Part shown: piece by piece, positions 3,574-58,197 of the stretch
Numbering within the stretch: the stretch's first letter is position 1
Layout: every line of letters begins with the position of its first letter
Origin: an uncultured Actinomycetota bacterium
GTDB lineage: Bacteria; Actinomycetota; Actinomycetes; Mycobacteriales; CADCTP01
Assembly: GCA_963766325.1 (NCBI GenBank)
Contig: CAVXZF010000007.1
Span: forward strand, 93,706 to 157,705
DNA: 64,000 bases
Reading direction: 5' to 3'
Position numbers and translations under genes: made by a program
The notes under the pieces: model-generated
What the model was told of the DNA's origin: nothing
Seen by the model: the letters and a program-made list of their open reading frames with translations, nothing else
Database searches by the model: none

Positions 3574-6195
3574 GTGACATCGACCGACCTGGCCGCCGAC
3601 CCGACCGGAGTGACCCGGGAGGAGCTGGACCGGCTCGTCGGCGGGGCGCACCACGACCCGCACTCGCTGCTCGGCCTGCACCCGGTGCGGGCCGCCCGGG
3701 CGGTGCCGGAGCGGGCGCCGGTCGCCTCGCCCGGGTCCGGGCAGCAGGCGATCGACACCGCCACCGACCCCACCGCCGCCCAGCCCGCCACCAACGGGGT
3801 CGCGGGTGCGGGCGCCGCCGCGGGTGCGGGCGCCGACACCGAGTCCCCGACCGAGGCCCCGACCGCCCCAGCCGCCCCAGCCGCCCCGACGGACCCGGCC
3901 GCCCAGACCTCCCCAGCCGCCCAGACCTCCCCAGCCGCCCCGACCTCCCCAGCCGCCCCGACGGATCCGGCTGCCCGGACCGCCCCAGCCGCTCCGGCCG
4001 GCGCGGGCGATCCGTCGACCGGCTCGCTGGAAGCGGGCGCCGACCCGGACCCCGGCACCGAGCCCGAGGCTGAGGTCGGCACCCTCGTGCTGCGCACCCT
4101 GCGCCCGGACGCCGGCCGGGTGGTCGCCGTCGTCGGCGACCGGCGGCACGAGCTGGACCGGGTGCACCCCGGCGGCGTGTTCGCCGGCCTGCTGCCCGGT
4201 CCGCCCGCCGACTACCGGCTCGAGGTGACCTACCCGGGCACCGGCGGCGGTCCGGACGAGACGATCACGGTCGACGACGCGTACCGGTGGCTGCCGACGC
4301 TGGGCGAGATCGACCTGCACCTGATCGGCGAGGGCCGGCACGAGCGGCTCTGGGAGGCGCTGGGCGCGCATTTCCGGACGTACGAGACCCCGCACGGGCC
4401 GGTCAGCGGCACCTCCTTCGCGGTGTGGGCGCCGAGTGCGCGGGGCGTCCGGGTCACCGGCGACTTCGACTACTGGCAGCGGCGCGCGTACCCGATGCGC
4501 TCGCTCGGCTCCAGCGGCATCTGGGAGATCTTCGTCCCGGGCGTGGTGCCCGGCGCGAAGTACAAGTTCTCCATCCTCGGCCGGGACGGCCGCTGGCGGG
4601 ACAAGGCCGACCCGCTGGCGTTCCAGACCGAGCGGACCCCGGCGACGGCGTCGGTGGTGCACAGCTCGACCCACCTGTGGTCCGACGACGAGTGGATGGC
4701 CAAGCGCGCGTCCACCCGCTGGCACGCCGCGCCGATGAGCACGTACGAGGTGCACCTCGGCTCCTGGCGCAAGGGCCTCGGCTACCGCGACGCGGCCGAC
4801 CAGCTGGCCGACTACCTGGTCGAGACCGGCTTCACCCACGTCGAGCTGCTGCCGCTGGCCGAGCACCCGTACGACGGGTCCTGGGGTTACCAGGTCACCT
4901 CGTTCTTCGCCCCGACCGCCCGCTTCGGCACCCCGGACGACTTCCGCTACTTCGTCGACCGGATGCACCAGGCCGGCATCGGCGTGATCATGGACTGGGT
5001 GCCCGGGCACTTCCCCAAGGACGAGTGGGCGCTGGCCCGCTTCGACGGCGGCCCGCTGTACGAGCACCCCGACCCGCGCCGCGGCGAGCAGCCGGACTGG
5101 GGCACGCTCGTCTTCGACTTCGGCCGCCGCGAGGTCCGCAACTTCCTGGTCGCGAACGCGCTCTACTGGCTCGAGGAGTTCCACATCGACGGGCTGCGGG
5201 TGGACGCGGTCGCCTCGATGCTCTACCTGGACTACTCCCGGCCGGCCGGGGAGTGGCTGCCCAACCAGTACGGCGGCCGGGAAAACCTGGAGGCCATCGC
5301 CTTCCTGCAGGAGATGAACGCGACCGTCTACCGACGGGTGCCGGGCGCGATCACGATCGCCGAGGAGTCGACCGCCTGGCCGGGCGTCACCCGGCCCACC
5401 CACCTCGGCGGGCTCGGCTTCGGCTTCAAGTGGAACATGGGGTGGATGCACGACACCCTGGACTACGCGTCCAAGGCGCCGATCTACCGGCAGTGGCACC
5501 ACCACCAGATGACCTTCTCGATGATGTACGCGTTCAGCGAGAACTACATGCTCCCGCTGTCGCACGACGAGGTCGTACACGGCAAGAAGTCGCTGCTCGG
5601 CCGGATGCCCGGCGACCACTGGCAGCAGGCGGCCACCCTGCGGGCGCTGTACGCGTACATGTGGGCCCATCCGGGCAAGCAGCTGCTGTTCATGGGCGGC
5701 GAGTTCGGCCAGGGCGCGGAGTGGGCCGACGGCCGGTCGCTGGACTGGTGGCTGCTGGACGACCCGCTGCACGGCGGGCTGCAGCGGCTCGTCGGCGACC
5801 TCAACCAGGCCTACCGGTCCGCCCCGGCGCTGTGGACGCAGGACACCTCGCCGGCCGGCTTCTCCTGGATCGACGCCAACGACGCCAGCAACAACACGTT
5901 CTCCTTCCTGCGCTGGGGCGACGAGGGCTCGGTGCTGGCCTGCGTGGTCAACTTCGCCAGCGTGCCGCACGAGGGCTACCGGCTCGGGCTGCCCCGCGCC
6001 GGCCGCTGGGTCGAGACGGTCAACACCGACGCCACCGTCTACGGCGGCTCCGGGGTGGGCAACATGGGCGAGGTCACCGCCGACCCCCAGCCCTGGCACG
6101 GCCAGCCCGCGTCGGTGCGGCTGCGGGTGCCGCCGCTGGGCGCCCTGTGGCTTCGCTACACCGGTGCGGCCATGCCCGACGGCACGGAGGACTGA
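3574..6195 (+). CDS. glgB: 1,4-alpha-glucan branching enzyme with a ~131-aa Pro/Ala/Thr-rich insertion in the N-terminal domain
   Basis: GH13 motifs [36 protein letters not shown] and [18 protein letters not shown] lies 4-5 nt before GTG 3574. Confidence 0.9.
3865..3990 (+). repeat. In-frame 9/18-bp repeats (gccccagcc; gcccagacctccccagcc) inside glgB
   Basis: Read directly. The repeats encode [37 protein letters not shown]. Confidence 0.85.
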
Positions 6196-6297
6196 CACCC
6201 TCCACACGCCGCCGCTGGCACGCTGTGGGGAGGTCTCCCGCGGGGCCCTCCGGCAGGATGGGGAACGACGGCGGTGCGGACGAGGGGTGGTTCGGCT

Positions 6298-7647
6298 ATG
6301 TCCTCCAGGAGCGTGCGGGCCCGGGTCGCGGTGCTGGCCGTGCTCGGTCTGCTGGCCAGCGGCTGCGCGCAGCAGGTCCCCGGCCTGGGCAGCTACTCGT
6401 CCGGCCGGACCGCCGTGGCCGACGCCAAGGTCGCCATCGAGGGCACCGACAACGGCGAGATCGACAAGCTCGCCGGCAACGCGATCGCGGACATCGAGAA
6501 GTTCTGGACCGAGCAGATGCCCGAGGTCTTCAACGAGCGCTACGACAAGGTCAAGGCGTATCACTCCATCGACCCGGACGGCAGCAGGGCCGCGCCGTGC
6601 ACCGACAGCGCCTCCGACATCCGCGGCAACGCGTTCTACTGCCCGTCCCGCGACGTCGTCGCCTGGGACCGCAAGGGCCTCTTCCCCGAGCTGCAGAAGC
6701 GCTTCGGCGACTTCCTCGTCGCCATGGTGCTCGCGCACGAGTGGGGGCACGCGATCCAGAAGCGCACCCGGATGCCGAGCAGCAAGACGATCGTGGTGGA
6801 GACCCAGGCCGACTGCTACGCCGGCGCCTGGACGCAGTACGCGCTCAAGGGCGGCGCGCCGCACTTCGAGATCGAGCGGCCCACGCTGGACAACGCGCTG
6901 TCCGGCTACCTGCTCTTCCGCGACCCGCTCGGGTCCGACCAGGACGACCGGCAGGCGCACGGCTCCGGCTTCGACCGGATCTCCGGCTTCCAGGACGGCT
7001 TCGAGAAGGGCGCGAAGTTCTGCACCACCTTCTCCGACACCCGGACCTTCACCCAGATCCGGTACGAGTCCGCCCGGGACGAGGCCCAGGAGGGCAACCT
7101 GCCGTTCGAGGACGCCTGGCGGCTGGGCACCGCGGACCTCGCCGAATACTGGGACAAGAGCTTCCGCACCACTTTCAACCAGGAGTGGGAGCCGGTGGCC
7201 GGTGTCGAGCAGTACTCCGGCAGCAAGCCCGGCTGCCAGGGCACCGAGAGCACCGCGGTGCGCTACTGCTCCGGCGAGGACAAGATCCTCGCCTCCACCG
7301 ACAGCCTCCGCCGGGTGGACCGGGAGACCGGCGACTTCGGCATGATGAGCCTGCTCGCGATCGCGTACGGGCAGGCGGTCCGCAAGCGGATCGGCAAGCC
7401 GATCAACGGCGACTCGGCTCTGCTCGGCTCCATCTGCCTGGCCGGCGGGTACGCGCGGGACTCCTTCGACAAGAAGCGTCCGGACGCGGAGATCACCCTG
7501 TCGCCGGGCGACCTCGACGAGGCGGTGCAGACGCTGCTCAACTTCGTCGGCAGGCAGGACGGCTTCTTCGTGGCCCGCAGCACCACCGGCTTCGACCGGG
7601 TGTCCGCCTACCGCAGCGGGTTCAACGACATCAAGGCCTGCCCCTGA
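6298..7647 (+). CDS. Putative secreted/lipoprotein neutral zinc metallopeptidase
   Basis: Signal peptide ending in a lipobox-like LLASGC. HEWGHAIQ (HExxH) zinc motif. The upstream start 6274 given in the track is an alternative. Confidence 0.65.
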   Translation: MSSRSVRARVAVLAVLGLLASGCAQQVPGLGSYSSGRTAVADAKVAIEGTDNGEIDKLAGNAIADIEKFWTEQMPEVFNERYDKVKAYHSIDPDGSRAAPCTDSASDIRGNAFYCPSRDVVAWDRKGLFPELQKRFGDFLVAMVLAHEWGHAIQKRTRMPSSKTIVVETQADCYAGAWTQYALKGGAPHFEIERPTLDNALSGYLLFRDPLGSDQDDRQAHGSGFDRISGFQDGFEKGAKFCTTFSDTRTFTQIRYESARDEAQEGNLPFEDAWRLGTADLAEYWDKSFRTTFNQEWEPVAGVEQYSGSKPGCQGTESTAVRYCSGEDKILASTDSLRRVDRETGDFGMMSLLAIAYGQAVRKRIGKPINGDSALLGSICLAGGYARDSFDKKRPDAEITLSPGDLDEAVQTLLNFVGRQDGFFVARSTTGFDRVSAYRSGFNDIKACP

Positions 7648-28997: not shown

Positions 28998-30494
28998 TCA
29001 CCGGCGGCGCGGGGCCCGGCCGTAGACGGCGGCCAGGACCAGCACCAGCCGCTTGATCGCGGCCGGGTGCCGATCGAAGCGGGTCACGTCGACCACGGAC
29101 GGGAAGCGCTGCCGGGTGACCGCCTTGGACCGGGCGAACTCGCGCAGCCCGTCCTCGCCGTGGATCCGGCCGAAGCCGGAGTCGCCGACCCCGCCGAAGG
29201 GCAGCGCGCCGACCCCCGTGAACGTGAGCACCGAGTTGACGCTGGCCATCCCGGAGCGCAGCCGGCGGGCGATCTCCTCGCCGCGGGCCTTGCCGAAGAC
29301 GGCGCCGCCCAGCCCGTACGCCGACGCGTTGGCCTTGGCGACCGCCTCGTCGGCGTCCCGCACCCGGGTCACCGTGAGCGTCGGTCCGAAGGTCTCCTCG
29401 CGGACCGCGGCGGCGTCCTCGGGCACGTCGACCAGCACGACCGGGTCCACGTACGGCGGGCGGACCGAGTCGGCGCCGCCGACCACCGCACGGCCACCGC
29501 GGTCGAGCGCGTCGGTCACGTGCCGGCGGATCACGTCCACCTGGGACGGCATCGTCGCCGGTCCGTACGCCGCCTCCCGGTCGTCGCCCGGCCGCAGCAG
29601 GGCCGCCTTGGCGGCCAGCGCGCGGACGAACTCGTCGTAGACGGCGTCGACCGCGTACACGCGCTCGATCCCGACGCAGGTCTGGCCGGCGTTGGCCATC
29701 CCGCCCCACAGCGCCGCGGTCGCCGCCGCCTGCACGTCCGCGTCGGCGTCCACCACCATGGCGTCCTTGCCGCCGCACTCCAGCAGCACCGGGGTGAGCG
29801 TCTCGGCGCAGGCCGCCATGATCTTCTTCGCCGTCGCCGTCGACCCGGTGAAGGCGATCTTGTCCACCCCGGACCGGCACAGCGCGGCCCCGGTGCCGCC
29901 GCCGCCGGTGACCAGCTGCAGCACCGGGTGCTCGGGCACCACGGTGGCGAACGAGCGGACCAGCCAGTCGGCCACCGCCGGCGTGTACTCGGACGGCTTG
30001 AAGACGACCGCGTTGCCGGCCGCCAGCGCGTACGCGATCGAGCCCATCGGGGTGAAGACGGGGTAGTTCCACGGGCCGATCACGCCGACCACCCCGTACG
30101 GCTGGTATTCCAGCGTGGCCGCGTGGTTGGCCAGCAGCAGCCCGGGCCGGACCTTGCGCCGGCCGAGCACCCGCTCCGCGTTGGCCGGCGCCCAGGACAG
30201 GTGCTCGATGGTGGCGGCGATCTCGATCACCGCGTCGTCGGTCGGCTTGCCGCCCTCGCGGTGCACCAGCTCGGCCAGCTCGGCCACCTTGCCGGCCAGC
30301 TGCACCCGCCAGGCCCGCAGCCGCTCGGCCCGGCCGGCGAAGCCGAGCCCGGCCCACCACTCCGCCGCGGCCCGGGCGCGCTCCACAGTGGACCGCACCG
30401 CGGCCTCGTCGTGCACGGCGAAGCGGCCGACCAGCTCGCCGGTGGCCGGGTCGGTGGAGTCGAAGGTCTCCACCCGGCTGTCCACAGTGGTCAT
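28998..30494 (-). CDS. NAD(P)-dependent aldehyde dehydrogenase
   Basis: ALDH motifs GPWNYP, FTGSTATAK, LECGGKDA and the catalytic Cys in GQTCVGIERV. The ATG lies in an ATGA overlap with the upstream GMC gene stop. Confidence 0.85.
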   Translation of the reverse strand: MTTVDSRVETFDSTDPATGELVGRFAVHDEAAVRSTVERARAAAEWWAGLGFAGRAERLRAWRVQLAGKVAELAELVHREGGKPTDDAVIEIAATIEHLSWAPANAERVLGRRKVRPGLLLANHAATLEYQPYGVVGVIGPWNYPVFTPMGSIAYALAAGNAVVFKPSEYTPAVADWLVRSFATVVPEHPVLQLVTGGGGTGAALCRSGVDKIAFTGSTATAKKIMAACAETLTPVLLECGGKDAMVVDADADVQAAATAALWGGMANAGQTCVGIERVYAVDAVYDEFVRALAAKAALLRPGDDREAAYGPATMPSQVDVIRRHVTDALDRGGRAVVGGADSVRPPYVDPVVLVDVPEDAAAVREETFGPTLTVTRVRDADEAVAKANASAYGLGGAVFGKARGEEIARRLRSGMASVNSVLTFTGVGALPFGGVGDSGFGRIHGEDGLREFARSKAVTRQRFPSVVDVTRFDRHPAAIKRLVLVLAAVYGRAPRRR

Positions 30495-32107
30495 CGGGGT
30501 GCTCCCGTCAGGGTGGGGGCCGGCGCCTCCGCCGGCAGCGGGGTCCGGCCGCGGAGCAGGTCGGCGGCGCGCTCGGCCAGCGCGATGACCGGCGCGTTGG
30601 TGTTGCCCCGGGGCACGGTCGGCATGACGCTGGCGTCCACCACCCGCAGCCCGGCCACCCCGTGCACCCGCAGCTCGGGGTCGACGACCGGCCCGATCGC
30701 GCAGGTGCCGACCGGGTGGTAGAGCGTCTCGGTGCCGGCCCGCACCGCCTCCCGGACGTCGTCGTCGCTGCGCGCCTCCGGGCCGGGCAGGTACGGCCGG
30801 TCGACGAAGCGGGCCAGCGGGCCCCGGGACGCGATGTCCTGGGCGACCCGCACCCCGGCCACCATCGCGTCCAGGTCGGCCGGCTCGGTGTAGTAGCCGG
30901 CGTCCACCGCCGGCCGCCAGCGCGGGTCGGCCGAGCGCAGGGTCACCCGGCCGCGGCTGCGCACGTGCACCACCGTCGGCGCGATAGTCACGCCGACCCC
31001 GGGCGGCGGGGTGAGCCCGTGGTTCGCCGCGATCGCCGGCACCACCATGAACTGCACGTCCGGCGCCGGCAGCCCGGCCGTGGAGCGGACGAACCCGCCG
31101 GACTCGGAGACGTTCGACACCAGCGGGCCGCGGTGGCCGGCGAACCAGCGCAGCAGGTTGGCCGTCGTCTCCGCCGCATGCAGGTCGGAGGTGCCGCGGG
31201 TGAACCAGCTGACCGGCACGTACGGGTGGTCCTGCAGCCCCTCCCCCACCCCCGGCAGGTCGGCGGCGACCTCGATCCCGTGCTCGCGCAGCTGGCTGGC
31301 CGGGCCGACCCCGGACAGCAGCAGCAGCTGCGGGCTCTGCACCGCGCCGGCGGCCAGCACGACCTCGCGCTCGGCGCGCACGGTCAGCTCGGCGCCGCGG
31401 TGCCGCAGCGTCACCCCGGTGGCCCGGCCCTGCTCGACCGTGACCCGGGTCACCAGCGCGTCCGTCAGCACGGTGAGATTGGGCCGGTGCAGCGCCGGGC
31501 GCAGGTACGCGTCCGCCGCCGACCAGCGCCGCCCGCCCCGCTGGGTCACCTGGTAGCGCCCGGCGCCGTCCTGGGTCGGCCCGTTGAAGTCGTCGTTGGC
31601 CGGCAGCCCGGCCACCGCCGCCGAGCCGAGGTAGGCGTCGGTCAGCTCGTGCACCCGGGGCAGGTCCTCGACCCGCAGCGGCCCGCCGGTCCCGTGGTAC
31701 GGCCCTGTCAGCCGAGCGTTGTCCTCGGCCCGCCGGAAGTAGGGCAGCAGGTCGGCGTAGCCCCAGCCGGCCGCGCCGTGCTCGTCCCGCCAGCCGTCGT
31801 AGTCGAGTGCGGCGCCGCGGATGTAGATCATCGCGTTGATCGACGAGCAGCCGCCGAGCATCCGCCCGCGCGGCCAGTAGAGCTTGCGGCCGTGCAGCTG
31901 CTTCTGCTCCTCGGTGCTGACGTCCCAGTCGCGCTCGGTCTTGAAGAGCTTGTAGAACGCGGCCGGGATGCGCACCTCCGGCACGTCGTCCGGCGGGCCG
32001 GCCTCCAGCAGCAGCACCTGGCTGCCCGGGTCCTCGGACAGCCGGCCGGCCAGCACGCAGCCGGAACTGCCCGCCCCGACCACGACGAAGTCGTACGAGG
32101 GCTTCAC
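30491..32107 (-). CDS. GMC-family FAD oxidoreductase (choline dehydrogenase-like)
   Basis: N-terminal YDFVVVGAGSSGCVLAGRLSED FAD motif and a GMC signature region. Only the 3' 539 codons of the 1227-aa track ORF are called. GTG 32107 is chosen; GTG 32116 is an alternative. Confidence 0.8.
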   Translation of the reverse strand: MKPSYDFVVVGAGSSGCVLAGRLSEDPGSQVLLLEAGPPDDVPEVRIPAAFYKLFKTERDWDVSTEEQKQLHGRKLYWPRGRMLGGCSSINAMIYIRGAALDYDGWRDEHGAAGWGYADLLPYFRRAEDNARLTGPYHGTGGPLRVEDLPRVHELTDAYLGSAAVAGLPANDDFNGPTQDGAGRYQVTQRGGRRWSAADAYLRPALHRPNLTVLTDALVTRVTVEQGRATGVTLRHRGAELTVRAEREVVLAAGAVQSPQLLLLSGVGPASQLREHGIEVAADLPGVGEGLQDHPYVPVSWFTRGTSDLHAAETTANLLRWFAGHRGPLVSNVSESGGFVRSTAGLPAPDVQFMVVPAIAANHGLTPPPGVGVTIAPTVVHVRSRGRVTLRSADPRWRPAVDAGYYTEPADLDAMVAGVRVAQDIASRGPLARFVDRPYLPGPEARSDDDVREAVRAGTETLYHPVGTCAIGPVVDPELRVHGVAGLRVVDASVMPTVPRGNTNAPVIALAERAADLLRGRTPLPAEAPAPTLTGAPR

Positions 32108-35214: not shown

Positions 35215-35870
35215 AAGAGGCGGCCGGTGGGGTCGTCAACGCCGCGCAGGGCGTCGTAGTCGAGGGTGACACAGGCGATGCCGCGGTCGGTGGCCAGCAC
35301 CCGGGCCTGCGGGGTGATCGCCTGCGCGGCGAAGATGCCACGCACCGGGGCGAGCACGGGGTCCCGGTTCATCAGCTCCAGGTAGCGGGTCAGCTGCTCG
35401 ACCCCGTCGATCTCGCCGCGCCGCTTGATCTCCACCGCGACGCTGGCCCCGGCGCCGTCCCGGCAGAGGATGTCCACCGGGCCGATCGCGGTCGGGTGCT
35501 CCCGGCGGACCAGCCGGTAGCCCTCGCCCAGCGTGGTGATCTGCTCCGCCAGCAGCCGCTGCAGCTCGGCCTCGACGCCGTCCTTGACCAGCCCGGGGTC
35601 GGTGCCCAGCTCGTGTTCGGAGTCGTGCAGGACCTCCTCCAGCGTGATCAGCAGCTGCTCGCCGGCCTTGTTGGTCACCGTCCAGCGGCCCGGCTCCTCG
35701 CGCAGCGTGCAGGGCGGGCTCATCCAGTTCAACGGCTTGTACGCCCGGTCGTCGGCGTGGATCGAGACCGACCCGTCCGCCTTGACCAGCAGCAGCCGCG
35801 GCGCCATCGGCAGGTGGGCGGTCAGCCGCCCCACGTAGTCCACGCTGCACCGGGCGACGACCAGTCTCAC
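35211..35870 (-). CDS. nucS: Endonuclease NucS (EndoMS, mismatch-specific)
   Basis: (M)[49 protein letters not shown] ... [21 protein letters not shown] closely matches actinobacterial NucS. Confidence 0.85.
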
Positions 35871-39699: not shown

Positions 39700-39851
39700 G
39701 GCGTCCCTCCCCCGCGCTAACGCCGGTACTGAGCACACATGATCGGGCGCTGATACGTCGCGTCCTCGCAGGGATCGTCATCGGATCGTCACCTGGGTGA
39801 CCGTCCGTGTTCGGCAGGCCCGTCGGCCGCGGGCAGTGCCAGACTGGACAC

Positions 39852-40187
39852 ATGCCTCTCGAGACCGGCGGCTACCACTACGTGGCGGGACCGGTCGTCG
39901 CGATCGTCCTGGTCTGCCTGCTCGCCATGCTGGCCCGGTGGATCTTCGGCACCGGCCGCAACCACGCCGCCGGCCGGGCACTGCCGCCGCGCTCCGGCCC
40001 GCAGGACCACGGGCTGCTCCGCCCGGTCGCCGAGCTTCCCGACCGGGCCGCCGGCGCGGCCCTGCGGGCGCTGCTGTCCGACGCCGGCATCCGGTCCACC
40101 CTCGGCGTACGGCGAGACGGCAGCGTGCAGGTGCTGGTCTTCCCGGACGACGAGGAGCAGGCCCGCCGGCTGGTCCCGCCCGGCTGA
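39852..40187 (+). CDS. Hypothetical small membrane-anchored protein
   Basis: One TM helix (VAGPVVAIVLVCLLAMLARWIF) plus a short soluble C-terminal domain. Supported only by ORF and position. Confidence 0.4.
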   Translation: MPLETGGYHYVAGPVVAIVLVCLLAMLARWIFGTGRNHAAGRALPPRSGPQDHGLLRPVAELPDRAAGAALRALLSDAGIRSTLGVRRDGSVQVLVFPDDEEQARRLVPPG

Positions 40188-40791: not shown

Positions 40792-41232
40792 TCAGGACGC
40801 GGCATATCCGGGCACCGCGAACCCGGGCGGGGCGGACTCGAGCCAGGACAGGAAGCCGGTGACCGCCCCGGAGCTCATCGCCACCTGCACCGGACCGGTG
40901 TCGTCCTGGCACTCCACGATCACCGCGCCGGCCTGCACCGCCCATGACTCGGCGCCGCTGGGCATCCGCCGGCCGATCACCTGCAGCTCGCGCCGGGACA
41001 GCGTGCGGGCCGGCTTCACCGACAGGGCGAACAACCGAAACCACAGCAGGTCGTCGCCGGTGTAACGGCCGACGCCAAGCGCCCAGCCGCCGCCGATCCG
41101 GCTGAAGCGGGTGCGCAGGCTCATGTCGATCGACCCGGCCGGGCGCAGCAGCACCCGGCGCCGCAGCGCCAGCAGCAGGAGGCTCAGGACGACGACGCCG
41201 ACCGCGACGGCGACGGCCAGCACGACCTCCAC
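40792..41232 (-). CDS. DUF2550 membrane protein (conserved downstream partner of atpC in actinobacteria)
   Basis: N-terminal TM helix followed by GWALGVGRYTGDDLLWFRLFALSVKP. Lies directly after atpC, like Rv1312. Confidence 0.7.
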   Translation of the reverse strand: MEVVLAVAVAVGVVVLSLLLLALRRRVLLRPAGSIDMSLRTRFSRIGGGWALGVGRYTGDDLLWFRLFALSVKPARTLSRRELQVIGRRMPSGAESWAVQAGAVIVECQDDTGPVQVAMSSGAVTGFLSWLESAPPGFAVPGYAAS

Positions 41233-41247
41233 CGCCGACCCCGCCGA

Positions 41248-41643
41248 CTAGACCGGCTGGCCGGACGCGCGGAGCCGGGACAGCGCCCGGCTGGCGGCAG
41301 CGCCCGCCTCGGAGTCGTCCTCGTCGGCGGACCGCGCCCGCTCCAGCGCCTGCTGGGCCCGGCCGACGTCGATCTCGTCAGCCCGCTCGGCCAGCTCGGC
41401 GAGGATCGAGACGCCGTCCTCGGTGACCGACAGGAAGCCGCCGTGCACGGCGAAGACGAGCTCCTCGCCGCCGCCTTCCTCCTGGATCCGGACGACGCCA
41501 CCGGGGGCGAGCTCACCGAGCAGCGGCGCGTGGCCCGGGAGCACGCCCAACTCGCCCTCGGTCGTACGGGCGATGACCATGCGGGCCTCGCCCGACCACA
41601 GCAGTCGCTCGACCGAGACGAGCTCGACGTGCACTGATGCCAC
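41248..41643 (-). CDS. atpC: F1 ATP synthase subunit epsilon
   Basis: [45 protein letters not shown] lies 6 nt before GTG 41643. ATG 41649 abuts the SD and is less likely. Confidence 0.85.
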
Positions 41644-41713
41644 GCGCATCTCCTTCGCCGGCGGGGGTCCTGCGCAGTCTAGCCAGTGCCTTTCGGCCGG
41701 TTAGGCTCGGGCT

Positions 41714-42376
41714 GTGCCCGCCCGGCCCTACGTGCTGCTGAGTTGCGCCATGTCACTGGACGGGTGCCTGGACGACGCGACCGACCAGCGGCTGGTGCTG
41801 TCCGGGCCGGCCGACCTGGACCGGGTGGACGCCGAGCGGGCCGGCTGCGACGCCATCGTGGTCGGCGCGGAGACGGTCCGCCGCGACGACCCGCGGCTGG
41901 AGGTGCGCTCGCCGGCCCGGCGCGCGGCCCGGATCGCGGCCGGGCGGCCGCCGTCGCCGCTGCGGGTGGTGCTGACCCGCGGTGGCGGGCTGGACCCCGG
42001 GGCGCGGCTGTTCGGCGGCGGGGCGACGCCGCTGGTCTACTGCGCCAGCGCGGGGCTGGATCAGGCCCGGGAGCGGCTCGGCGCGGTGGCCACCGTGGCC
42101 GACGCCGGCCCGGCCGGTGACCTCCACGGCGTGCTGGCCGACCTGGCCGGGCGGGGCGTGCGGCGGCTGATGGTGGAGGGCGGCAGCGCGGTGCTGGCCG
42201 GCTTCCTCGACGCCGGGCTGGCCGACGAGCTGCAGCTGGCCGTTGCGCCGCTGCTGGTCGGTGACCCGCGGGCGCCGCGCTTCCTCGGGAGGCCGGGGCG
42301 GCCCCGGCTGCTCGACCTGCGGGCGGTCGGGGACGCGGCGCTGCTGCGGTACGCGCTGTCGGACCGGGCCTCGTGA
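41714..42376 (+). CDS. RibD C-terminal-domain reductase (5-amino-6-(5-phosphoribosylamino)uracil reductase-like / DHFR-fold)
   Basis: RPYVLLSCAMSLDGCLDD...RAGCDAIVVGAETVRRDDPRL...RRLMVEGGSAVLAGFL. Confidence 0.7.
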   Translation: MPARPYVLLSCAMSLDGCLDDATDQRLVLSGPADLDRVDAERAGCDAIVVGAETVRRDDPRLEVRSPARRAARIAAGRPPSPLRVVLTRGGGLDPGARLFGGGATPLVYCASAGLDQARERLGAVATVADAGPAGDLHGVLADLAGRGVRRLMVEGGSAVLAGFLDAGLADELQLAVAPLLVGDPRAPRFLGRPGRPRLLDLRAVGDAALLRYALSDRAS

Positions 42377-42807
42377 CCGACGACACCGAGCTGCTCCGCC
42401 GGGCGGTCGAGCTGGCCCGCCGCTGCCCGCCTTCCCGGACCGCGTACGCGGTGGGCGCGCTGGTGGTGGCCCCGGACGGCACCGTGCTGGGCCACGGGCA
42501 CTCCCGGGAGACCGCCCCGGACGTGCACGCCGAGGAGGTCGCGCTGGACCGCTCCGGCGTGGCCGCGACCGGCGCGACCGTCTACAGCTCGCTGGAGCCG
42601 TGCGGGGTCCGCCGGTCCCGTCCGGTGCCGTGTGCGCGGCTGCTCGTCGCCGCCGGCGTACGGCGAGTGGTCTTCGCGCTGCGCGAGCCGCCGCTGCTGG
42701 CCGCCGGCGGCGGGGCGGAGGTGCTCACCGCGGCCGGCGTGGAGGTCCTCGAGCTGCCCGGGTTGGCCGACGCCGCCCGGGCCGCCAACCCGCACCTGCT
42801 CGACTGA
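42373..42807 (+). CDS. Cytidine/deoxycytidylate-type zinc deaminase (RibD N-terminal-domain-like)
   Basis: HAEEVAL and LEPC....PC zinc-ligand motifs. GTGA overlap with the preceding reductase gene. Confidence 0.7.
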   Translation: MTDDTELLRRAVELARRCPPSRTAYAVGALVVAPDGTVLGHGHSRETAPDVHAEEVALDRSGVAATGATVYSSLEPCGVRRSRPVPCARLLVAAGVRRVVFALREPPLLAAGGGAEVLTAAGVEVLELPGLADAARAANPHLLD

Positions 42808-42814
42808 GCACGGA

Positions 42815-42850
42815 CGGCGACGGCCGGTCCGCAGGGACCGGCCGCCGTCG
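42815..42850. terminator. GC-rich hairpin between the deaminase gene (+) and atpD (-)
   Basis: 16-bp stem CGGCGACGGCCGGTCC / GGACCGGCCGCCGTCG with one mismatch and one G-T pair, loop GCAG. It starts 8 nt after the atpD stop. Confidence 0.5.
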
Positions 42851-42858
42851 TGGGTGGA

Positions 42859-45245
<2,387 letters not shown>

Positions 45246-45249
45246 CGGA

Positions 45250-46908
45250 TCAGCCCTGGCTCTGCGCCGGGCGCGGCTGCCGGTAGCGCTTGACCGTCTC
45301 CTGGCCGACGTCCTCGGCGTCCATCGCCTCGGCCGGCGCCTCGTGGCCAACCAGCGGCCGGCCCTCCGAGGTCTGGAACTCCTTCTTGAACGCTTCGACG
45401 GCCCGCTTGAGCTGCTCCAGCGTGTCGTCGTCGAGCTTGCCGGTCTGCACGATCGCGTCGTAGATCCCGCGGTGCTCGCGGCCGACGTAGTCGAGGAACT
45501 CCCGCTCGAAGCGGCGGATGTCGGCCACCGGGACCACGTCCAGCTCGCCGGTGGTGCCGGCCCAGATGGACACGACCTCCTGCTCGACCGGGAAGGGTGA
45601 GTACTGCGGCTGCTTGAGCAGCTCGACCAGCCGGGCACCGCGGGCCAGCGCGTCCTGCGAGGCCTTGTCCAGGTCGGAGCCGAACGCGGAGAACGCCTCG
45701 AGCTCGCGGAACTGGGCCAGGTTGAGCCGCAGCGAGCCGGCCACCGTCTTCATCGCCTTGATCTGCGCGTTGCCGCCGACCCGGGAGACCGAGACGCCGA
45801 CGTTGATGGCCGGCCGGACGCCCGAGTTGAACAGGCCGGTCTCCAGGAAGATCTGGCCGTCGGTGATGGAGATGACGTTGGTCGGGATGTACGCCGAGAT
45901 GTCGTTGCCGCGGGTCTCGATCATCGGGAAGCCGGTCATCGAGCCGCCGCCGAGCTCGTCGGACAGCTTCGCGCAGCGCTCCAGCAGCCGGGAGTGCAGG
46001 TAGAAGACGTCGCCCGGGTACGCCTCGCGGCCCGGCGGGCGGCGCAGCAGCAGCGAGATCGCGCGGTACGCCTCGGCCTGCTTGGACAGGTCGTCGAAGA
46101 CGATCAGCACGTGCTTGCCGCCGTACATCCAGTGCTGGCCGATGGCCGAGCCGGTGTAAGGGGCCAGGTACTTGAAGCCGGCCGCGTCCGAGGCCGGGGC
46201 GGCGACGATCGTCGTGTACTCCAGCGCGCCGGCCTCCTCCAGCGTCGCCCGCAGCGCGGCGATCGTGGAGCCCTTCTGGCCGACCGCAACGTAGATGCAG
46301 CGGACCTGCTGCTTCGGGTCGCCGGTGGCCCAGTTGGCCTTCTGGTTGATGATCGTGTCGATCGCGATCGTGGTCTTGCCGGTCTGCCGGTCGCCGATGA
46401 TGAGCTGGCGCTGGCCGCGGCCGATCGCGGTCATCGCGTCGATCGCCTTGATACCGGTCTGCAGCGGCTCCTTCACCGGCTGGCGCTGCACCACGCTCGG
46501 CGCCTGCAGCTCCAGCGCGCGCCGCTCCTCGCTGGTGATCTCGCCCATGCCGTCGATCGGCTCGCCCAGCGCGTCGACCACGCGGCCGAGGAACCCGTCG
46601 CCGACCGGGACGGACAGGATGTCGCCGGTGCGCTGCACCGGCTGGCCCTCGTCGATGCCCTGCTGGTCGCCGAGGATCACGACGCCGATCTCGCGGACGT
46701 CGAGGTTGAGGGCCAGGCCCAGCGTGCCGTCCTCGAAGCGGAGCAGCTCGTTGGTCATCGCCGACGGAAGACCCTGGACACGGGCGATGCCGTCACCGGT
46801 CTCCGAGACGACGCCGACCTCCTCGCGCGAGACCTCCGGGGAGTAGGACCGGACGTAGTCGTCGAGAGCACTCCGGATCTCATCGGCGGAGATCGTCAAC
46901 TCAGCCAT
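45250..46908 (-). CDS. atpA: F1 ATP synthase subunit alpha
   Basis: [12 protein letters not shown]... and Walker [15 protein letters not shown] lies 8 nt before ATG 46908. Confidence 0.95.
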
Positions 46909-46996
46909 CTGCACTGCTCCCCTGCATATCGTCCGTCGTTCGTGTCGCTTCGCGTACGGTCCCTGCCCGCATGGTCCCTGCCCCGCGCCGGCCCGG

Positions 46997-47824
46997 CTAC
47001 CCGGCCAGCCGGTGCCGGGCCGTGGTCAGCCGGGAGAGCACGCTGCCGTCGATGACCTCGTCGTTCACCCGCACCACCAGGCCGCCGAGCAAGGCCGGGT
47101 CGACCGCCACCTGGATCGACACCGGGCGGCCGTAGATCCGGGCCAGCACGTCGGCCAGCCGGCGCTCCTGCTGCTCGGTCAGCGGCGCCGCCGCGGTCAC
47201 CGTCGCCACGTAGCGCTGCCGGCGGGCCGCGGCCAGCTCGACGAGCTCGCCGGTCGACCGGTCCAGCGTGCGGCCGCGGGGCACGCGGACCGCGTGCTCC
47301 AGCAGTCGCCGGGTGGTCGGGTCGACCCGCTCGCCGATCAGCCGATCGAGGAGGCCGGCGCGGCGATCCGGGTCGGCCGTGCGGTCCTCCAGCGCCTGCC
47401 GCAGCCCCGGCTCGCCGTCCAGGATCCGGGCGAAGCGGAACAGCTGGTCCTCGACCTCGTCCAGCCTGCCCTCGCGCTCGGCCACCCCGAGCGCGGCCCG
47501 GCGGCCGAGCAGCTCGGTCGCGTCGGTCAGATCGCGCGGGGTGGACCAGCGGGACCGCACCAGCGGGCGCAGCAGCCGCAGCGTCGAGTCGCCGACCTGG
47601 GCGCCGAGCAGCCGCTCCAGCAGCGCCGCCCGGCGGTCCGGCTCGGCGGCCGGGTCGGCCAGCGCCCGACGCACGCCGGGCTGCCGGTCCAGCAGCGTCA
47701 CGGTGGCGAACAGCTCGTCCGCCATCCGGGCCAGGTCGGCCGGGTCGGCGCTGTCGACGTAGTCGTCCAGCCCGCGGGTCGCAAGATCGAGCGACTCGCG
47801 GCTGGCCGCACCGGTGAGGTCCAT
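46997..47824 (-). CDS. atpH: F1 ATP synthase subunit delta
   Basis: C-terminal OSCP pattern ([22 protein letters not shown]). ATG 47824 lies 1 nt after the atpF stop. Confidence 0.85.
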
Positions 47825-47825
47825 G

Positions 47826-48596
47826 TCAGCGCCGCCGGGACGACGGGCCGTCCCCGTCGCCGTCGCCACTCGCCGCCGTCCCGCCGGTCTCCCTCGCCGC
47901 GCCGGTCGAGCCGCTGAAGCCCGTCGAGCCGCTGCCGCCCGTCGAGCCGCTGCCGCCGGTCGGGCCGCCGCCGGTCGAGCTGCTGGAGGCGCCGCCGGTC
48001 AGGCCGGCCGAGCCGCTGCTGGCCGAGTCGGTGCTGCTGGGAGCGCCGGCGGGCACGGACTCCGCCATTCCGTCCAGGTCGTCGAGGAACCGGTCCACGG
48101 TCCGCTGCCGCGCCTGGTCGTGGGCCAGCGACTCGCCGACCACCCGCTCGGCGAGCTGGGTCGCCAGCGTGCCGATCTCCCCGCGCAGCTCGCGCACCAC
48201 CTGCTGGCGCTGCACGGACAGCTGCTCCTCGCCCCGGGCCACGATCCGCGCGGACTCCTCCTGCGCGGTGGACCGCATCTCCTCGATGATCCGCTGGCCC
48301 TCGGCCCGGGCGTTGTCCCGGATCTGCGCGGCCTCGGTGCGCGCCTCGGCGAGCTGCTGCCGGTAGTCGGTCAGCAGCCGCTTAGCCTCCTCCTGGGCCT
48401 CCTCGGCCCGCTTGATCCCGCCCTCGATCGCGTCGCGGCGCGCCTCGAAGGTCGCCTCCATCCGCGGCCAGACGTACTTCATCAGCACCCAGGCGAGGAT
48501 CGCGAACGCGATCAGGCCGATGATGATCTCTTCGACGGGCGGGACGACCGGGTTCGGCTCCTCCCCGCCCTCGGTGACGGCCAGGATGTGCAGCAT
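47826..48596 (-). CDS. atpF: Fo ATP synthase subunit b with ~78-aa Ser/Gly/Thr-rich C-terminal extension
   Basis: N-terminal TM helix plus a long charged helix (RRDAIEGGIKRAEEAQEEAKRLL) and operon position. Confidence 0.8.
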   Translation of the reverse strand: MLHILAVTEGGEEPNPVVPPVEEIIIGLIAFAILAWVLMKYVWPRMEATFEARRDAIEGGIKRAEEAQEEAKRLLTDYRQQLAEARTEAAQIRDNARAEGQRIIEEMRSTAQEESARIVARGEEQLSVQRQQVVRELRGEIGTLATQLAERVVGESLAHDQARQRTVDRFLDDLDGMAESVPAGAPSSTDSASSGSAGLTGGASSSSTGGGPTGGSGSTGGSGSTGFSGSTGAARETGGTAASGDGDGDGPSSRRR

Positions 48597-48619: not shown

Positions 48620-48877
<258 letters not shown>

Positions 48878-48914: not shown

Positions 48915-49730
48915 TCAGTGCGCCTCTTCCAGGGCACCGGCCAGGTAGGTCGCGGTGAGCACGGTGAACACGTACGCCTGCAGGACCTGCACCAGCAGCT
49001 CGAAGAACGTCATGATGACCGCCATCACGAACGACACCGGCGCGAAGACCACCGAGAAGTTCCCGGTCTGGAGCAGGTACGCCGCGCCGAGCGCGAAGAT
49101 CACCAGCAGCAGGTGGCCGGCGAACATGTTCGCAAACAGCCGGATGGCGAGGGTCAGCGGCCGGAAGATCAGCGTCGAGGCGATCTCGATGGGCGTGACG
49201 AGCACGTACATCGGCTTGGGCACCCCGGGCGGGAACGCGACACCCTTGAAGTAGGGCCCGATGCCCTGGGCGCGAATGCCCACCCAGTTGAAGAGGAGGT
49301 ACGTGATCGCGGCGAGGAATGCCGGGATCGCGATCTTCGCCGTCGGCGCGATCTGCGCGAACGGGACGATCCCCATCAGGTTGTTGGCCAGGATGAAGTA
49401 GAAGAGGACCCCGAGATAGGGCGCGAACCGCAGCCCCTCCCGGCCGATCACCTCGCGGGCGATGCCGTCCCGGACGAACGAGTAGGCCGCCTCGCCCATC
49501 CACTGCAGCTTCGCCGGCACCAGCTGCGGCCGGCGCACCGACGCGAGGAAGAAGATCCCCACCGCCGCGGTGGCGATCCAGGAGATGACGGTGATGCGGG
49601 TGATCTCGAAGGTCAGGCCCAACACGCTGAACTCGGCCAGCGGCGCGGGGAAGAACTCGTTGACGGTCGGCGCGCAGAACCCGGGGTCGTCCGGCGGGCA
49701 CTCGGTGGCGAGGATGGTGCTGGTGCTCAC
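48915..49730 (-). CDS. atpB: Fo ATP synthase subunit a
   Basis: The conserved LAIRLFANMFAGHLLL motif and operon position. Confidence 0.9.
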   Translation of the reverse strand: MSTSTILATECPPDDPGFCAPTVNEFFPAPLAEFSVLGLTFEITRITVISWIATAAVGIFFLASVRRPQLVPAKLQWMGEAAYSFVRDGIAREVIGREGLRFAPYLGVLFYFILANNLMGIVPFAQIAPTAKIAIPAFLAAITYLLFNWVGIRAQGIGPYFKGVAFPPGVPKPMYVLVTPIEIASTLIFRPLTLAIRLFANMFAGHLLLVIFALGAAYLLQTGNFSVVFAPVSFVMAVIMTFFELLVQVLQAYVFTVLTATYLAGALEEAH

Positions 49731-57838: not shown

Positions 57839-58057
57839 CTAGCTGTTGCGCTGGCGCTTGCCGTAGCGCTGCTCGAAGCGGGCCACCCGGCCACCGGTGT
57901 CCAGAATCTTCTGCTTGCCGGTGTAGAAGGGGTGGCACTGGGAGCACACGTCGGCGTGGATCACGCCGTTCTTCGCGGTGCTCCGCGTCGTGAACGAGGC
58001 CCCGCAGGAGCAGGTCACCGTCGTCTCGACGTAGTCGGGGTGGATTCCGGACTTCAC
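57839..58057 (-). CDS. rpmE: 50S ribosomal protein L31 (zinc-ribbon type)
   Basis: [19 protein letters not shown]...[13 protein letters not shown]. Confidence 0.95.
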
Positions 58058-58197
58058 GAATGGGTCCTCTCGTCGGTGGCCGCCGGGTCGCCTGCGCCGT
58101 TGATGAACGGGGCCGGGCGTGAACCGGAGCCGAGGTCGTGCCCAGTGTGCCAGAGCGGCGCACCGCTGCGTTCAACGGACGGCACGGTCAGGTATTC

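Follow-up and report, generated by a model that had tools for sequence, protein, structure and literature searches.

An opposite-strand reductase-deaminase gene pair separates atpD and atpC in a clade of uncultured Mycobacteriales

Results

Gene order of the atp locus

The window, that is the whole 64-kb stretch of DNA that was analysed, was found to contain the eight F1Fo structural subunit genes in canonical order, all on the minus strand, from 49730 to 41248. They were assigned with Pfam and NCBIfam models, and the alpha subunit by its ORF and the domains of its relatives. Within the window the structural genes of the operon started with atpB (F0 subunit a; 48915-49730; PF00119, 1.9e-60), followed by atpE (subunit c; 48620-48877; PF00137, 1.3e-14), atpF (subunit b; 47826-48596; PF00430, 1e-29), atpH (delta/OSCP; 46997-47869; PF00213, 1.6e-40) and atpA (alpha; 45250-46914), at whose position the relatives contained the ATP-synt_ab_N, ATP-synt_ab and ATP-synt_ab_C domains. 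The TGA stop of atpG (gamma; 44307-45245; PF00231, 2.9e-96) overlapped the ATG of atpD (ATGA), and atpD (beta; 42859-44310; TIGR01039, 795 bits, cutoff 463) was the last gene of the putative upstream transcription unit. The atpC gene (epsilon; 41248-41643, minus strand; PF02823, 1.6e-27; NF009977, 116 bits, cutoff 80) encoded 131 amino acids from its GTG, the mechanical ORF reaching up to an ATG at 41649. It was followed after 15 nt by a DUF2550 gene on the same strand (40792-41232; PF10739, 2.1e-42). The DUF2550 gene came after atpC in all relatives, and the two are presumably co-transcribed.

The atpD and atpC genes were not adjacent, 1215 bp with two opposite-strand genes lying between them. 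The gap was delimited as 41644-42858 because the GTG at 41643 is the atpC start that was kept in the relatives, and the upstream ATG at 41649 was not, being missing from L003, L004 and the other relatives. On the plus strand the gap contained the gene of a RibD_C pyrimidine reductase (41714-42376) followed by that of a RibD-like zinc deaminase (42373-42807), with a GTGA serving as joint stop and start, in which the deaminase GTG lies over the reductase TGA. Only the atpD-atpC junction was broken, because the atpG-atpD ATGA overlap persisted.

Coding status of the two plus-strand ORFs

Long spurious ORFs are common in high-GC DNA and several long ORFs overlap the gap region, as would be expected if the plus-strand ORFs were chance products or the contig were mis-assembled. 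Against this, GC by codon position was 0.86/0.58/0.96 in the reductase ORF and 0.84/0.57/0.96 in the deaminase ORF, the normal pattern of high-GC coding sequence, and it was found in these two frames only, the competing minus-strand and alternative ORFs of the gap having a non-coding pattern. Both ORFs had Pfam matches (4.9e-39 for the reductase and 2.3e-15 for the deaminase) and thousands of homologues with the catalytic residues kept, were intact in every relative and gave a dN/dS below 1 in all pairwise comparisons. The GC content of the insert (about 0.80, compared with about 0.70 in atpD and 0.75-0.77 in atpC) was like that of other low-expression genes in the window. The identical layout was found in at least 10 independent assemblies. 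Since short-read, long-read and MAG assemblies made independently of one another all contained this arrangement, it does not come from faulty assembly. The artefact reading, which retains a negligible probability, is already refuted, and the plus-strand ORFs are genes.

The first-pass annotation of this DNA had described the 1215-bp gap with two plus-strand genes between atpD and atpC, and the description was borne out by the domain matches, the codon-position GC, the dN/dS and the relatives. The codon-position GC gave the plus strand as coding in 41714-42807, and a comparison of the atpD-atpC layout in relatives returned the same order in the assemblies counted above and an insert-free order in L098 and L099. 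The further prediction that epsilon and DUF2550 are expressed in a non-canonical way also stands, in so far as it can be read from the sequence: canonical expression would be impossible, because two real opposite-strand genes interrupt atpD-atpC.

The reductase and the deaminase

The RibD_C-family (Rib7-like) reductase (41714-42376, plus strand; PF01872) was found to contain 220 amino acids from a GTG start. Against the solved structures it scored 109 bits with archaeal Rib7 5XUX and 92 bits with 6P8C, and 47 bits with B. subtilis RibG. The residues T54, D58 and E155-G156-G157, invariant in the family, aligned with T196, D200 and the E-x-G motif of EcRibD. In ScRIB7 the NADPH-binding and catalytic residues are T79, D83, E180 and G181-G182 (PMC3631187), and their counterparts in the RibD_C family, the Thr and Gly-Gly that bind NADPH as well as the Asp and Glu of catalysis, were present in the reductase. 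A loss of the catalytic Asp, for which 'VVLTR' in place of 'VVxDS' was considered, was rejected, EcRibD Asp200 sitting in 'LADDP', which is D58. A Lys at position 152 of EcRibD (151 of BsRibG) selects the deaminated substrate, AROPP (PMC3631187); this AROPP-type Lys was absent, and its position was occupied by Ser10, which was invariant in 11 family members. The best NCBIfam match was TIGR01508 (122 bits, cutoff 186), the Ser at the specificity site being Rib7-like, and the scores were under the cutoffs of TIGR00227 and TIGR00326. A look-up by exact sequence gave no recorded entry for the reductase of the window.

The deaminase (42373-42807, plus strand) was a stand-alone RibD-like zinc pyrimidine deaminase of 144 amino acids from a GTG, matching PF00383 (dCMP_cyt_deam_1) and the N-terminal part of TIGR00326 (8.9e-23). 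It contained the zinc and catalytic motifs HAEE and PC...C as H52-A-E54 and P76-C77...C87, invariant in 15 homologues. Its best solved relatives were the RibG/RibD deaminase domains (83 bits), and AoRib2 gave 59 bits. The Asp101 and Asn103 of BsRibG contact ribose (PMC8256712), and this pair was not retained: RDPNP of RibG corresponded to REPPL in the deaminase, with an invariant Glu105 and with Pro, Ser, Ala or Asp at position 107. Arg80 and Ser82 were present 3 and 5 residues past the first zinc Cys, and were equated with Arg105 and Ser107 of AoRib2 from match coordinates and motif spacing.

Compared with bifunctional RibD/RibG, the pair was alike in containing both functionally linked domains, in the deaminase profile, which fits RibD/RibG best, and in the RibD_C fold of the reductase with its catalytic Thr, Asp and Glu-Gly-Gly. 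It differed in having separate genes with the reductase before the deaminase, in the replacement of EcRibD K152 by Ser10 and of BsRibG Asp101/Asn103 by Glu105/Pro107, and in the score under the TIGR00326 cutoff. The reductase was far closer to the M. mazei Rib7 and the archaeal DAROPP reductase than to RibG, and its small residue at the specificity site recalls Thr35 of ScRIB7 (PMC3631187), whereas it fell short of the Rib7 model TIGR01508 and contained Thr-Arg or Thr-Gly in place of the Asp-Ser of the Rib7/RibD 'VVxDS' strand. The deaminase resembled AoRib2 (PMC8256712) in Arg80/Ser82 and in the Glu at the RibG Asp101 site, whereas its overall similarity was higher to RibG.

Fusions of reversed order (reductase-deaminase) were found in 11 of the 83 other loci, in some actinomycetes. 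The Micromonospora homologue overlapped the gene of GTP cyclohydrolase II, the product of which is DAROPP. The cassette looks like a pair of the archaeal/fungal type, which would reduce first and then deaminate. No report of an actinobacterial reductase-deaminase pair of this kind was found in the searchable literature.

Hairpin and putative control elements in the gap

The atpD and deaminase genes converge on a GC-rich hairpin (42815-42850), which is separated from the atpD stop (42859-42861) by 8 nt and from the deaminase stop by 7 nt, and which by its fold was terminator-like in both directions. It contained 16 stem positions (14 Watson-Crick pairs, 1 G-T and 1 mismatch) and a loop of 4 nt, with a folding energy of -38.2 kcal/mol on the plus strand (z -3.7) and -35.4 on the minus strand (z -4.0), and 0 of 200 shuffled sequences folded equally well. 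The letters that come after the hairpin on the plus strand were CTACTTGTT, and a terminator-like scan match with a T-rich tail was present at 42842-42857 on the plus strand only. On the atpD-sense strand no U-tract followed the hairpin, and termination of the atpD transcript there may therefore be partial. Every insert-bearing locus had a hairpin at the same place 3' of atpD, though the stems differed in sequence, and L088 kept it despite having another neighbouring gene there.

The atpC gene was preceded by a Shine-Dalgarno sequence AAGGAG (41650-41655, minus strand), spaced 6 nt from its GTG (41643), and further upstream by the -10-like hexamer TAGACT (41676-41681, minus strand), a putative promoter of atpC-DUF2550. 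Both were invariant in 12 of 12 related loci, with differing sequence between and around them. The hexamer stood at -36 to -40 relative to the atpC GTG in the loci with the insert and at -52 in the insert-free sister lineage. Its single occurrence in the 64-kb window is by itself not an enrichment, because 3.5 were expected; the argument is one of positional conservation among related, non-independent sequences. The hairpin with its 16-bp stem, the Shine-Dalgarno sequence and the TAGACT hexamer had each been named in the first-pass annotation, and all were recovered at the same places.

In front of the reductase GTG a second -10-like hexamer, TAGGCT (41702-41707, plus strand), was located at a distance of 6 nt. 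All insert-bearing loci contained a TANNNT 6-7 nt before this GTG, in the form of TAGGCT, TAGGGT, TATGGT or TACCGT, and no AGGAG-like sequence was found between it and the GTG. The cassette is therefore described as a putative leaderless unit, divergent from atpC. Both TAGACT and TAGGCT fit the actinobacterial -10 TANNNT and, being positionally conserved, are treated as putative promoters; no -35 element was recognisable beside either, and a generic sigma-70 scan, not tuned to actinobacterial promoters, gave no promoter. The length of the divergent spacer differed among the insert-bearing loci, with extremes of about 64 and about 150 bp, and the distance between the two hexamers was 20-21 bp in the window, L003, L088 and L089, about 85 bp for L004 and 90-115 bp for L092-L097. 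Neither an FMN riboswitch nor any further Rfam family was found in or near the gap.

Distribution and origin of the split layout

The extent of the trait was followed in metagenome contigs and MAGs. The layout was also found in L003, L004, L088, L089 and L092-L097, which came from independent samples and assemblers and belong to one uncultured Mycobacteriales clade. The atpD-atpC gap was about 1.1-2.6 kb among these insert-bearing relatives. The longest, 2.6 kb in L088, contained four plus-strand genes, which encode the reductase, the deaminase, an ECF sigma factor and a protein of 271 aa, so that as much as 2.6 kb of DNA with genes on the other strand is tolerated at the break. No insert was present in L098 and L099, whose epsilon is 89% identical; their 175-bp atpD-atpC spacer contained a local stem of 11 bp behind atpD and the TAGACT described above.

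A tree built from the flanking proteins placed the insert-bearing loci in a monophyletic group, with L099 as sister (76% bootstrap, the root being one very distant outgroup), and a tree of 43 loci built from the pair united the seven insert-bearing loci in a single clade (88% bootstrap). Throughout the clade the split layout is fixed, and it has a single origin on a flank tree rooted with that one distant outgroup. The direction of change would be a gain rather than a loss; alternatively, the insert may have been lost in the L099 lineage.

In L006 (Streptosporangiaceae) the order was atpD-atpC-DUF2550-pduO-GMC oxidoreductase-ALDH-[reductase-deaminase]-methyltransferase-NucS, with an atpD-atpC spacer of 40 nt that contained a Shine-Dalgarno sequence only. 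NucS, ALDH and GMC oxidoreductase genes adjoined the pair in 17-27 of the 83 other loci. The window itself contained ALDH (29016-30470), GMC oxidoreductase (30545-32095) and NucS (35238-35870) genes, and the pair was absent between them. The neighbourhood from which the cassette came is a few kb away in the atp-nucS region and not outside the genome. Among the 80 metagenome deaminase loci (52-66% identity) none contained atp genes within 3.5 kb; the genome-contig search, with the deaminase as lone query, gave at least two loci. No target-site duplication, terminal inverted repeats or mobile-element direct or inverted repeats were found flanking the insert. A mobile element or recent horizontal island was considered and rejected on the lack of such repeats and on the GC of the insert, which resembles that of other low-expression genes in the window.

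Discussion

The locus shares with the canonical atpIBEFHAGDC operon the usual structural gene order and the atpG-atpD ATGA, and with the canonical actinobacterial operon the presence of DUF2550 and PduO-type adenosyltransferase genes after atpC, as in L006; Rv1311-Rv1314c of M. tuberculosis have the same arrangement. It is unlike the canonical operon in the two opposite-strand genes that split atpD from atpC, where L006 has a spacer of 40 nt, and in the -10-like element that atpC and the hairpin that atpD have of their own. Split atp operons are known as atp1/atp2 of cyanobacteria and chloroplasts and as the separate F0 and F1 operons of alpha-proteobacteria, and in these the beta and epsilon genes remain neighbours (atpB-atpE or atpD-atpC). 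The present locus resembles them in having ATP synthase genes in what would be more than one transcription unit, whereas the break lies exactly between beta and epsilon, the pieces are adjacent and foreign genes are wedged in. No description of an atpD-atpC interruption was found in the searchable literature.

The account that we regard as reasonably probable is an old, short-range inverted relocation of the cassette into a pre-equipped spacer, with three transcription units as the outcome. In a common ancestor of the uncultured Mycobacteriales clade, the two-gene cassette (Rib7-like reductase and RibD-like deaminase, with GTGA-coupled translation) would have shifted by a few kb within the atp-nucS neighbourhood and landed inverted in a long atpD-atpC spacer, which would already have contained the atpD hairpin and the TAGACT -10 in front of atpC. 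The atpC promoter and the long spacer probably predate the insertion. One unit, atpBEFHAGD, would be transcribed from the main atp promoter and end at the GC hairpin 8 nt past the atpD stop. A further unit, atpC-DUF2550, would be transcribed from its own promoter, with the TAGACT 32 nt before the GTG and a leader of about 25 nt. The remaining unit, the reductase-deaminase mRNA, would be leaderless and divergent, its TAGGCT ending 6 nt before the GTG, and would end at the same hairpin, there trailed by CTACTTGTT.

Expression of epsilon and DUF2550 from a separate atpC promoter is favoured over read-through, because the TAGACT was kept amid diverged flanks, the L088 gap measures 2.6 kb and the hairpin was kept. 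Under read-through, atpC-DUF2550 would be transcribed mainly from the main atp promoter, past a U-less hairpin and through 1.2 kb of antisense sequence, with the TAGACT having a minor role or none. The missing U-tract on the atpD-sense strand, the T-rich tail on the plus strand only and the want of an evident -35 element are compatible with this, and we nevertheless consider it unlikely: the position of the TAGACT was kept in all 12 loci including the insert-free sister, transcription would have to cross four opposite-strand genes in L088, a strong hairpin directly after atpD was kept in every lineage, and head-on transcription into a divergently promoted leaderless cassette would carry a cost. 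The clade-wide retention of the divergent arrangement, and the close hexamers of the window, L003, L088 and L089, could also point to a functional coupling, in which the head-to-head cassette and atpC (epsilon with flavin/F420-precursor enzymes) would be co-regulated through a shared control region; the -35 zone of each putative promoter overlaps the -10 of the other, because the hexamers are 20 bp apart in the window. Such a coupling is judged highly improbable, since the hexamer spacing is not conserved in L004 and L092-L097, apart from the hexamers nothing resembling a conserved operator was seen in the alignment, no riboswitch or other Rfam element was found, and the pair is unlinked to atpC in all other lineages.

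A reduce-first reading of the cassette is put forward tentatively, as a possibility somewhat short of probable. The cassette, with its actinomycete relatives and the reversed fusions, would then represent a bacterial reduce-first route to riboflavin or F420 precursors, and epsilon, the F1 inhibitory subunit, would thereby be autonomously promoted and independent in dosage. The Rib7-like reductase may act directly on DAROPP, and the RibD-derived deaminase, with a re-tooled sugar site, may then act on the ribityl intermediate. In the textbook rule of bacterial riboflavin synthesis deamination comes first, and the module may not follow this rule. The reductase-then-deaminase module, with its Rib7-like specificity residues, altered deaminase sugar site and reversed fusions, is possibly of wider biochemical interest.

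As a variation in gene order, the split is real and inherited, but modest. Few gene adjacencies in bacteria are as conserved as the beta-epsilon junction, and it has been stably broken over long evolutionary time in an abundant uncultured clade of soil actinobacteria. Loci of this kind may be miscalled by annotation pipelines in which atpDC adjacency is assumed. The stable break was tolerated likely because atpC already had its own promoter, and the locus would be a natural example of an internal promoter that pre-adapts an essential operon to insertion. The prediction for these organisms is that epsilon stoichiometry would be set transcriptionally and not by translational coupling.

ATP synthase operon and the interrupted atpD-atpC junction

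The minus strand of the window was found to contain a complete F1Fo operon comprising atpB (48915-49730), atpE (48620-48877), atpF (47826-48596), atpH (46997-47869), atpA (45250-46914), atpG (44307-45245) and atpD (42859-44310; atpG/atpD overlap ATGA), followed beyond a gap of 1215 bp (41644-42858) by atpC (41248-41643) and a DUF2550 gene (40792-41232). Two opposite-strand genes between atpD and atpC had been proposed in the first-pass annotation, and both were borne out by Pfam matches and coding GC pattern. The plus strand of the gap contained a 220-aa RibD_C protein, here called the reductase (41714-42376; Pfam 4.9e-39), and a 144-aa zinc deaminase (42373-42807; PF00383, 2.3e-15), whose GTG overlaps the reductase TGA and whose sequence matched the N-terminal half of TIGR00326 (eubacterial RibD) at 8.9e-23. 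The GC by codon position was 0.86/0.58/0.96 in the reductase and 0.84/0.57/0.96 in the deaminase, which identifies both frames as coding, and the alternative ORFs overlapping the pair had non-coding patterns. The GC content was 0.78-0.83 in the inserted genes (41750-42800), ~0.68-0.70 in atpD and 0.75-0.77 in atpC. The longest atpC ORF begins at ATG 41649, leaving 0 nt between it and the Shine-Dalgarno sequence, and the GTG at 41643 was invariant among relatives, where ATG 41649 was absent; automatic annotation could over-extend epsilon by two residues.

In the known split atp operons of cyanobacteria, chloroplasts and alpha-proteobacteria, beta and epsilon stay together, and the searchable literature yielded no description of a break between atpD and atpC. 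The parts are of known kinds (F1Fo operon, RibD-family enzymes, hairpin, -10 hexamers and a putative leaderless mRNA), and the unusual feature is the position of the break in the operon.

Elsewhere in the window, a 126-aa plus-strand ORF (39807-40187; GC3 0.93) between the STAS gene and pduO had no Pfam match, and relatives were found to contain a called gene of 112-117 aa at the matching position. The sole Rfam match at gathering score in the window was an L31-Actinobacteria ribosomal-protein leader (58078-58133, minus strand; 52 bits), just upstream of a 72-aa ORF (57839-58057, minus strand).

Distribution and rate of evolution

The nearest proteins were all from uncultured "Mycobacteriales bacterium" entries or soil metagenome contigs, and no named genus was present among the >120 epsilon clusters at least 85% identical to the window. 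The order atpD, deaminase (reversed), reductase (reversed), atpC was also found in two long-read ENA contigs (L003, L089), in the MAGs GCA_045806925.1 (L004) and GCA_035641815.1 (L088), and in L092-L095 and L096-L097, obtained from several samples and assemblers; the interruption is a fixed clade trait and no accident. The gap of L088 was ~2.6 kb and contained four plus-strand genes, the two extra ones (4829-6144) being placed after the deaminase, with the post-atpD hairpin retained. These encode an ECF sigma factor (167 aa; Sigma70_r2, Sigma70_r4_2, Sigma70_ECF) and a 271-aa protein with no Pfam match, possibly the anti-sigma factor of its neighbour.

The sister loci L098 and L099 did not contain the insert; their epsilon and AtpD were 89% and 88% identical to those of the window, and their atpD-atpC spacer (4824-5000) was gene-free and, at 175 bp, unusually long. 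In a neighbour-joining tree of four flanking proteins, the insert-bearing loci were monophyletic (bootstrap 76%) with L099 as sister, and in a concatenated reductase and deaminase tree of 43 loci the seven insert-bearing loci grouped together (bootstrap 88%). As both trees group these loci, the simplest history would be a single insertion that was then inherited vertically.

The pair was found to evolve ~4x faster than its neighbours (distance 0.45 vs 0.10, window vs L092). The reductase had a dN/dS of 0.13-0.45 and the deaminase one of 0.20-0.74, compared with 0.09-0.23 in atpC, values probably inflated through extreme codon bias; constraint on the pair is weaker than on its neighbours but still purifying. 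The high deaminase dN/dS of 0.6-0.74 within the window's own sub-clade suggests relaxed constraint, perhaps from redundancy with another RibD. The reductase of L092 (4280-4861), L097 (4272-4841) and L093-L096 was missing ~25 residues from mid-fold (alignment columns ~120-145); its ORF was nevertheless intact, with a dN/dS of 0.13 between L092 and L097.

Origin of the inserted pair

The pair was common in other actinomycetes (Micromonosporaceae, Streptosporangiaceae, Pseudonocardia, Streptomyces, Kitasatospora, Actinomadura), where it was never found in the atp operon; none of 80 metagenome loci outside the clade contained atp genes within 3.5 kb of it. Polymorphospora rubra and the 3.3-Mb contig L005 likewise carried it outside the atp operon. 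The recurrent neighbours were a GMC oxidoreductase, an aldehyde dehydrogenase (ALDH), a THUMP-like methyltransferase and NucS. The Streptosporangiaceae locus L006 contained the order atpD, atpC, DUF2550, pduO, GMC oxidoreductase, ALDH, reductase-deaminase unit, methyltransferase, NucS, with a 40-nt atpD-atpC spacer holding a Shine-Dalgarno sequence only. In the window, ALDH (29016-30470), GMC oxidoreductase (30545-32095) and NucS (35238-35870) were present and the pair was absent between them; the flanks of the insert contained no repeats of mobile-element type. From these gene orders and repeat-free flanks, a short-range intrachromosomal rearrangement would be the most economical origin. In one L092-lineage contig (L094:5938-7377), an inserted IS-type DDE transposase gene (DDE_Tnp_1, 479 aa) separates DUF2550 from pduO; this adds to the evidence that the DNA downstream of atpC is prone to rearrangement.

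Hairpin, promoter-like elements and proposed expression

The GC hairpin after atpD (42815-42850) noted at first pass proved real, with 14 Watson-Crick pairs, one G-T pair, one mismatch, folding energies of -38 kcal/mol (plus strand) and -35 kcal/mol (minus strand) and z ~-4. Every insert-bearing locus contained a strong GC hairpin 5-20 nt past the atpD stop, the stems varying in sequence and length between lineages; L088 keeps it although another gene faces atpD there, and the insert-free L099 had a local 11-bp stem directly after atpD. The previously marked signals before atpC were likewise located: TAGACT lies at the complement of 41676-41681, and AAGGAG is 6 nt before the GTG. Loci with the insert had TAGACT at -36 to -40 from the atpC GTG, and L098 and L099 had it at -52; in most loci it was the sole forward TANNNT within 190 nt upstream, its flanking bases differed, and an invariant AAGGAG came after it, 6-7 nt ahead of the GTG. 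On the other strand, a TANNNT (TAGGCT, TAGGGT, TATGGT or TACCGT) occurred 6-7 nt before the reductase GTG with no Shine-Dalgarno sequence between them, the geometry standard for actinobacterial leaderless transcripts. The hairpin, TAGACT and TANNNT were conserved across lineages whose cassette proteins fell to ~60% identity. A generic sigma-70 scan of the region returned no promoter, and an Rfam search at the gap returned no riboswitch or other element.

The conserved elements most likely act as promoters and a terminator. The atpD-sense strand of the hairpin was without a U-tract, so some transcription might still read through it, antisense to the cassette. The insert lies exactly between the hairpin and the promoter-like element, and the insert-free sister has both of them. 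Under the reading with putative terminator and promoters, atpC would already have been semi-autonomous before insertion, and the insertion would have been tolerated for that reason. In the window, TAGACT (minus) and TAGGCT (plus) form divergent -10-like hexamers 20 bp apart (41676-41707). The expected -35 zone of each overlaps the -10 of the other, which might make the two putative promoters mutually exclusive; this spacing was not conserved in L004 and L092-L097.

Predicted chemistry of the reductase and deaminase

The reductase retained T54, D58 and E155-G-G, which match the residues assigned to NADPH binding and catalysis in yeast RIB7 and E. coli RibD (PMC3631187). Its best-scoring solved structures were those of archaeal Rib7 (5XUX at 109 bits, 6P8C at 92 bits), with B. 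subtilis RibG at 47 bits. Bacterial RibD/RibG select the deaminated substrate by a lysine (EcRibD K152), and yeast Thr35 to Lys moves the preference towards AROPP (PMC3631187); this position was Ser throughout the inserted reductase's family, whereas RibD/RibG have Lys. The conserved Asp-Ser strand of Rib7 and RibD was replaced by Thr-Arg or Thr-Gly. The nearest Micromonospora homologue of the reductase (63% identical; Micromonospora aurantiaca GCA_900090255.1; L001:4015-8690) has no deaminase next to it and overlaps a gene for GTP cyclohydrolase II, whose product is the non-deaminated DAROPP. Its cluster also contains PTPS, a GT4 glycosyltransferase, a methyltransferase and an LPG_synthase_TM protein, and might encode a specialised pathway of pterin or flavin-like type.

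The deaminase retained the HAE and PC...C motifs and was closest overall to the RibD/RibG deaminase domains. The RibG residues Asp101 and Asn103, which hold the ribose ring (PMC8256712), were replaced by Glu105 and Pro107. Arg80 and Ser82 lie +3 and +5 residues from the first zinc Cys, like Arg105 and Ser107 of A. oryzae Rib2 (PMC8256712). Both inserted proteins scored under the curated NCBIfam cutoffs. In 11 of 83 other loci both proteins were encoded by one fused ORF with the reductase first and the deaminase second, the reverse of RibD. These fusions (L006 at 5915-7456, L008, L009, L011, L012, L020, L039, L049, L052, L055, L056; 449-668 aa) contained RibD_C, a long linker and the deaminase, and Pfam confirmed both domains in one frame in L006 and L020. 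Apart from the sub-cutoff scores and the altered Asp-Ser strand, the reductase, deaminase and fusion features together suggest that the cassette may provide a reduce-first route to a riboflavin/F420 precursor.

The gene-order change is solid and clade-wide, its pre-adaptation account is plausible and its general interest is modest; the possible reduce-first chemistry and the reversed-order fusions would be the newer lead.
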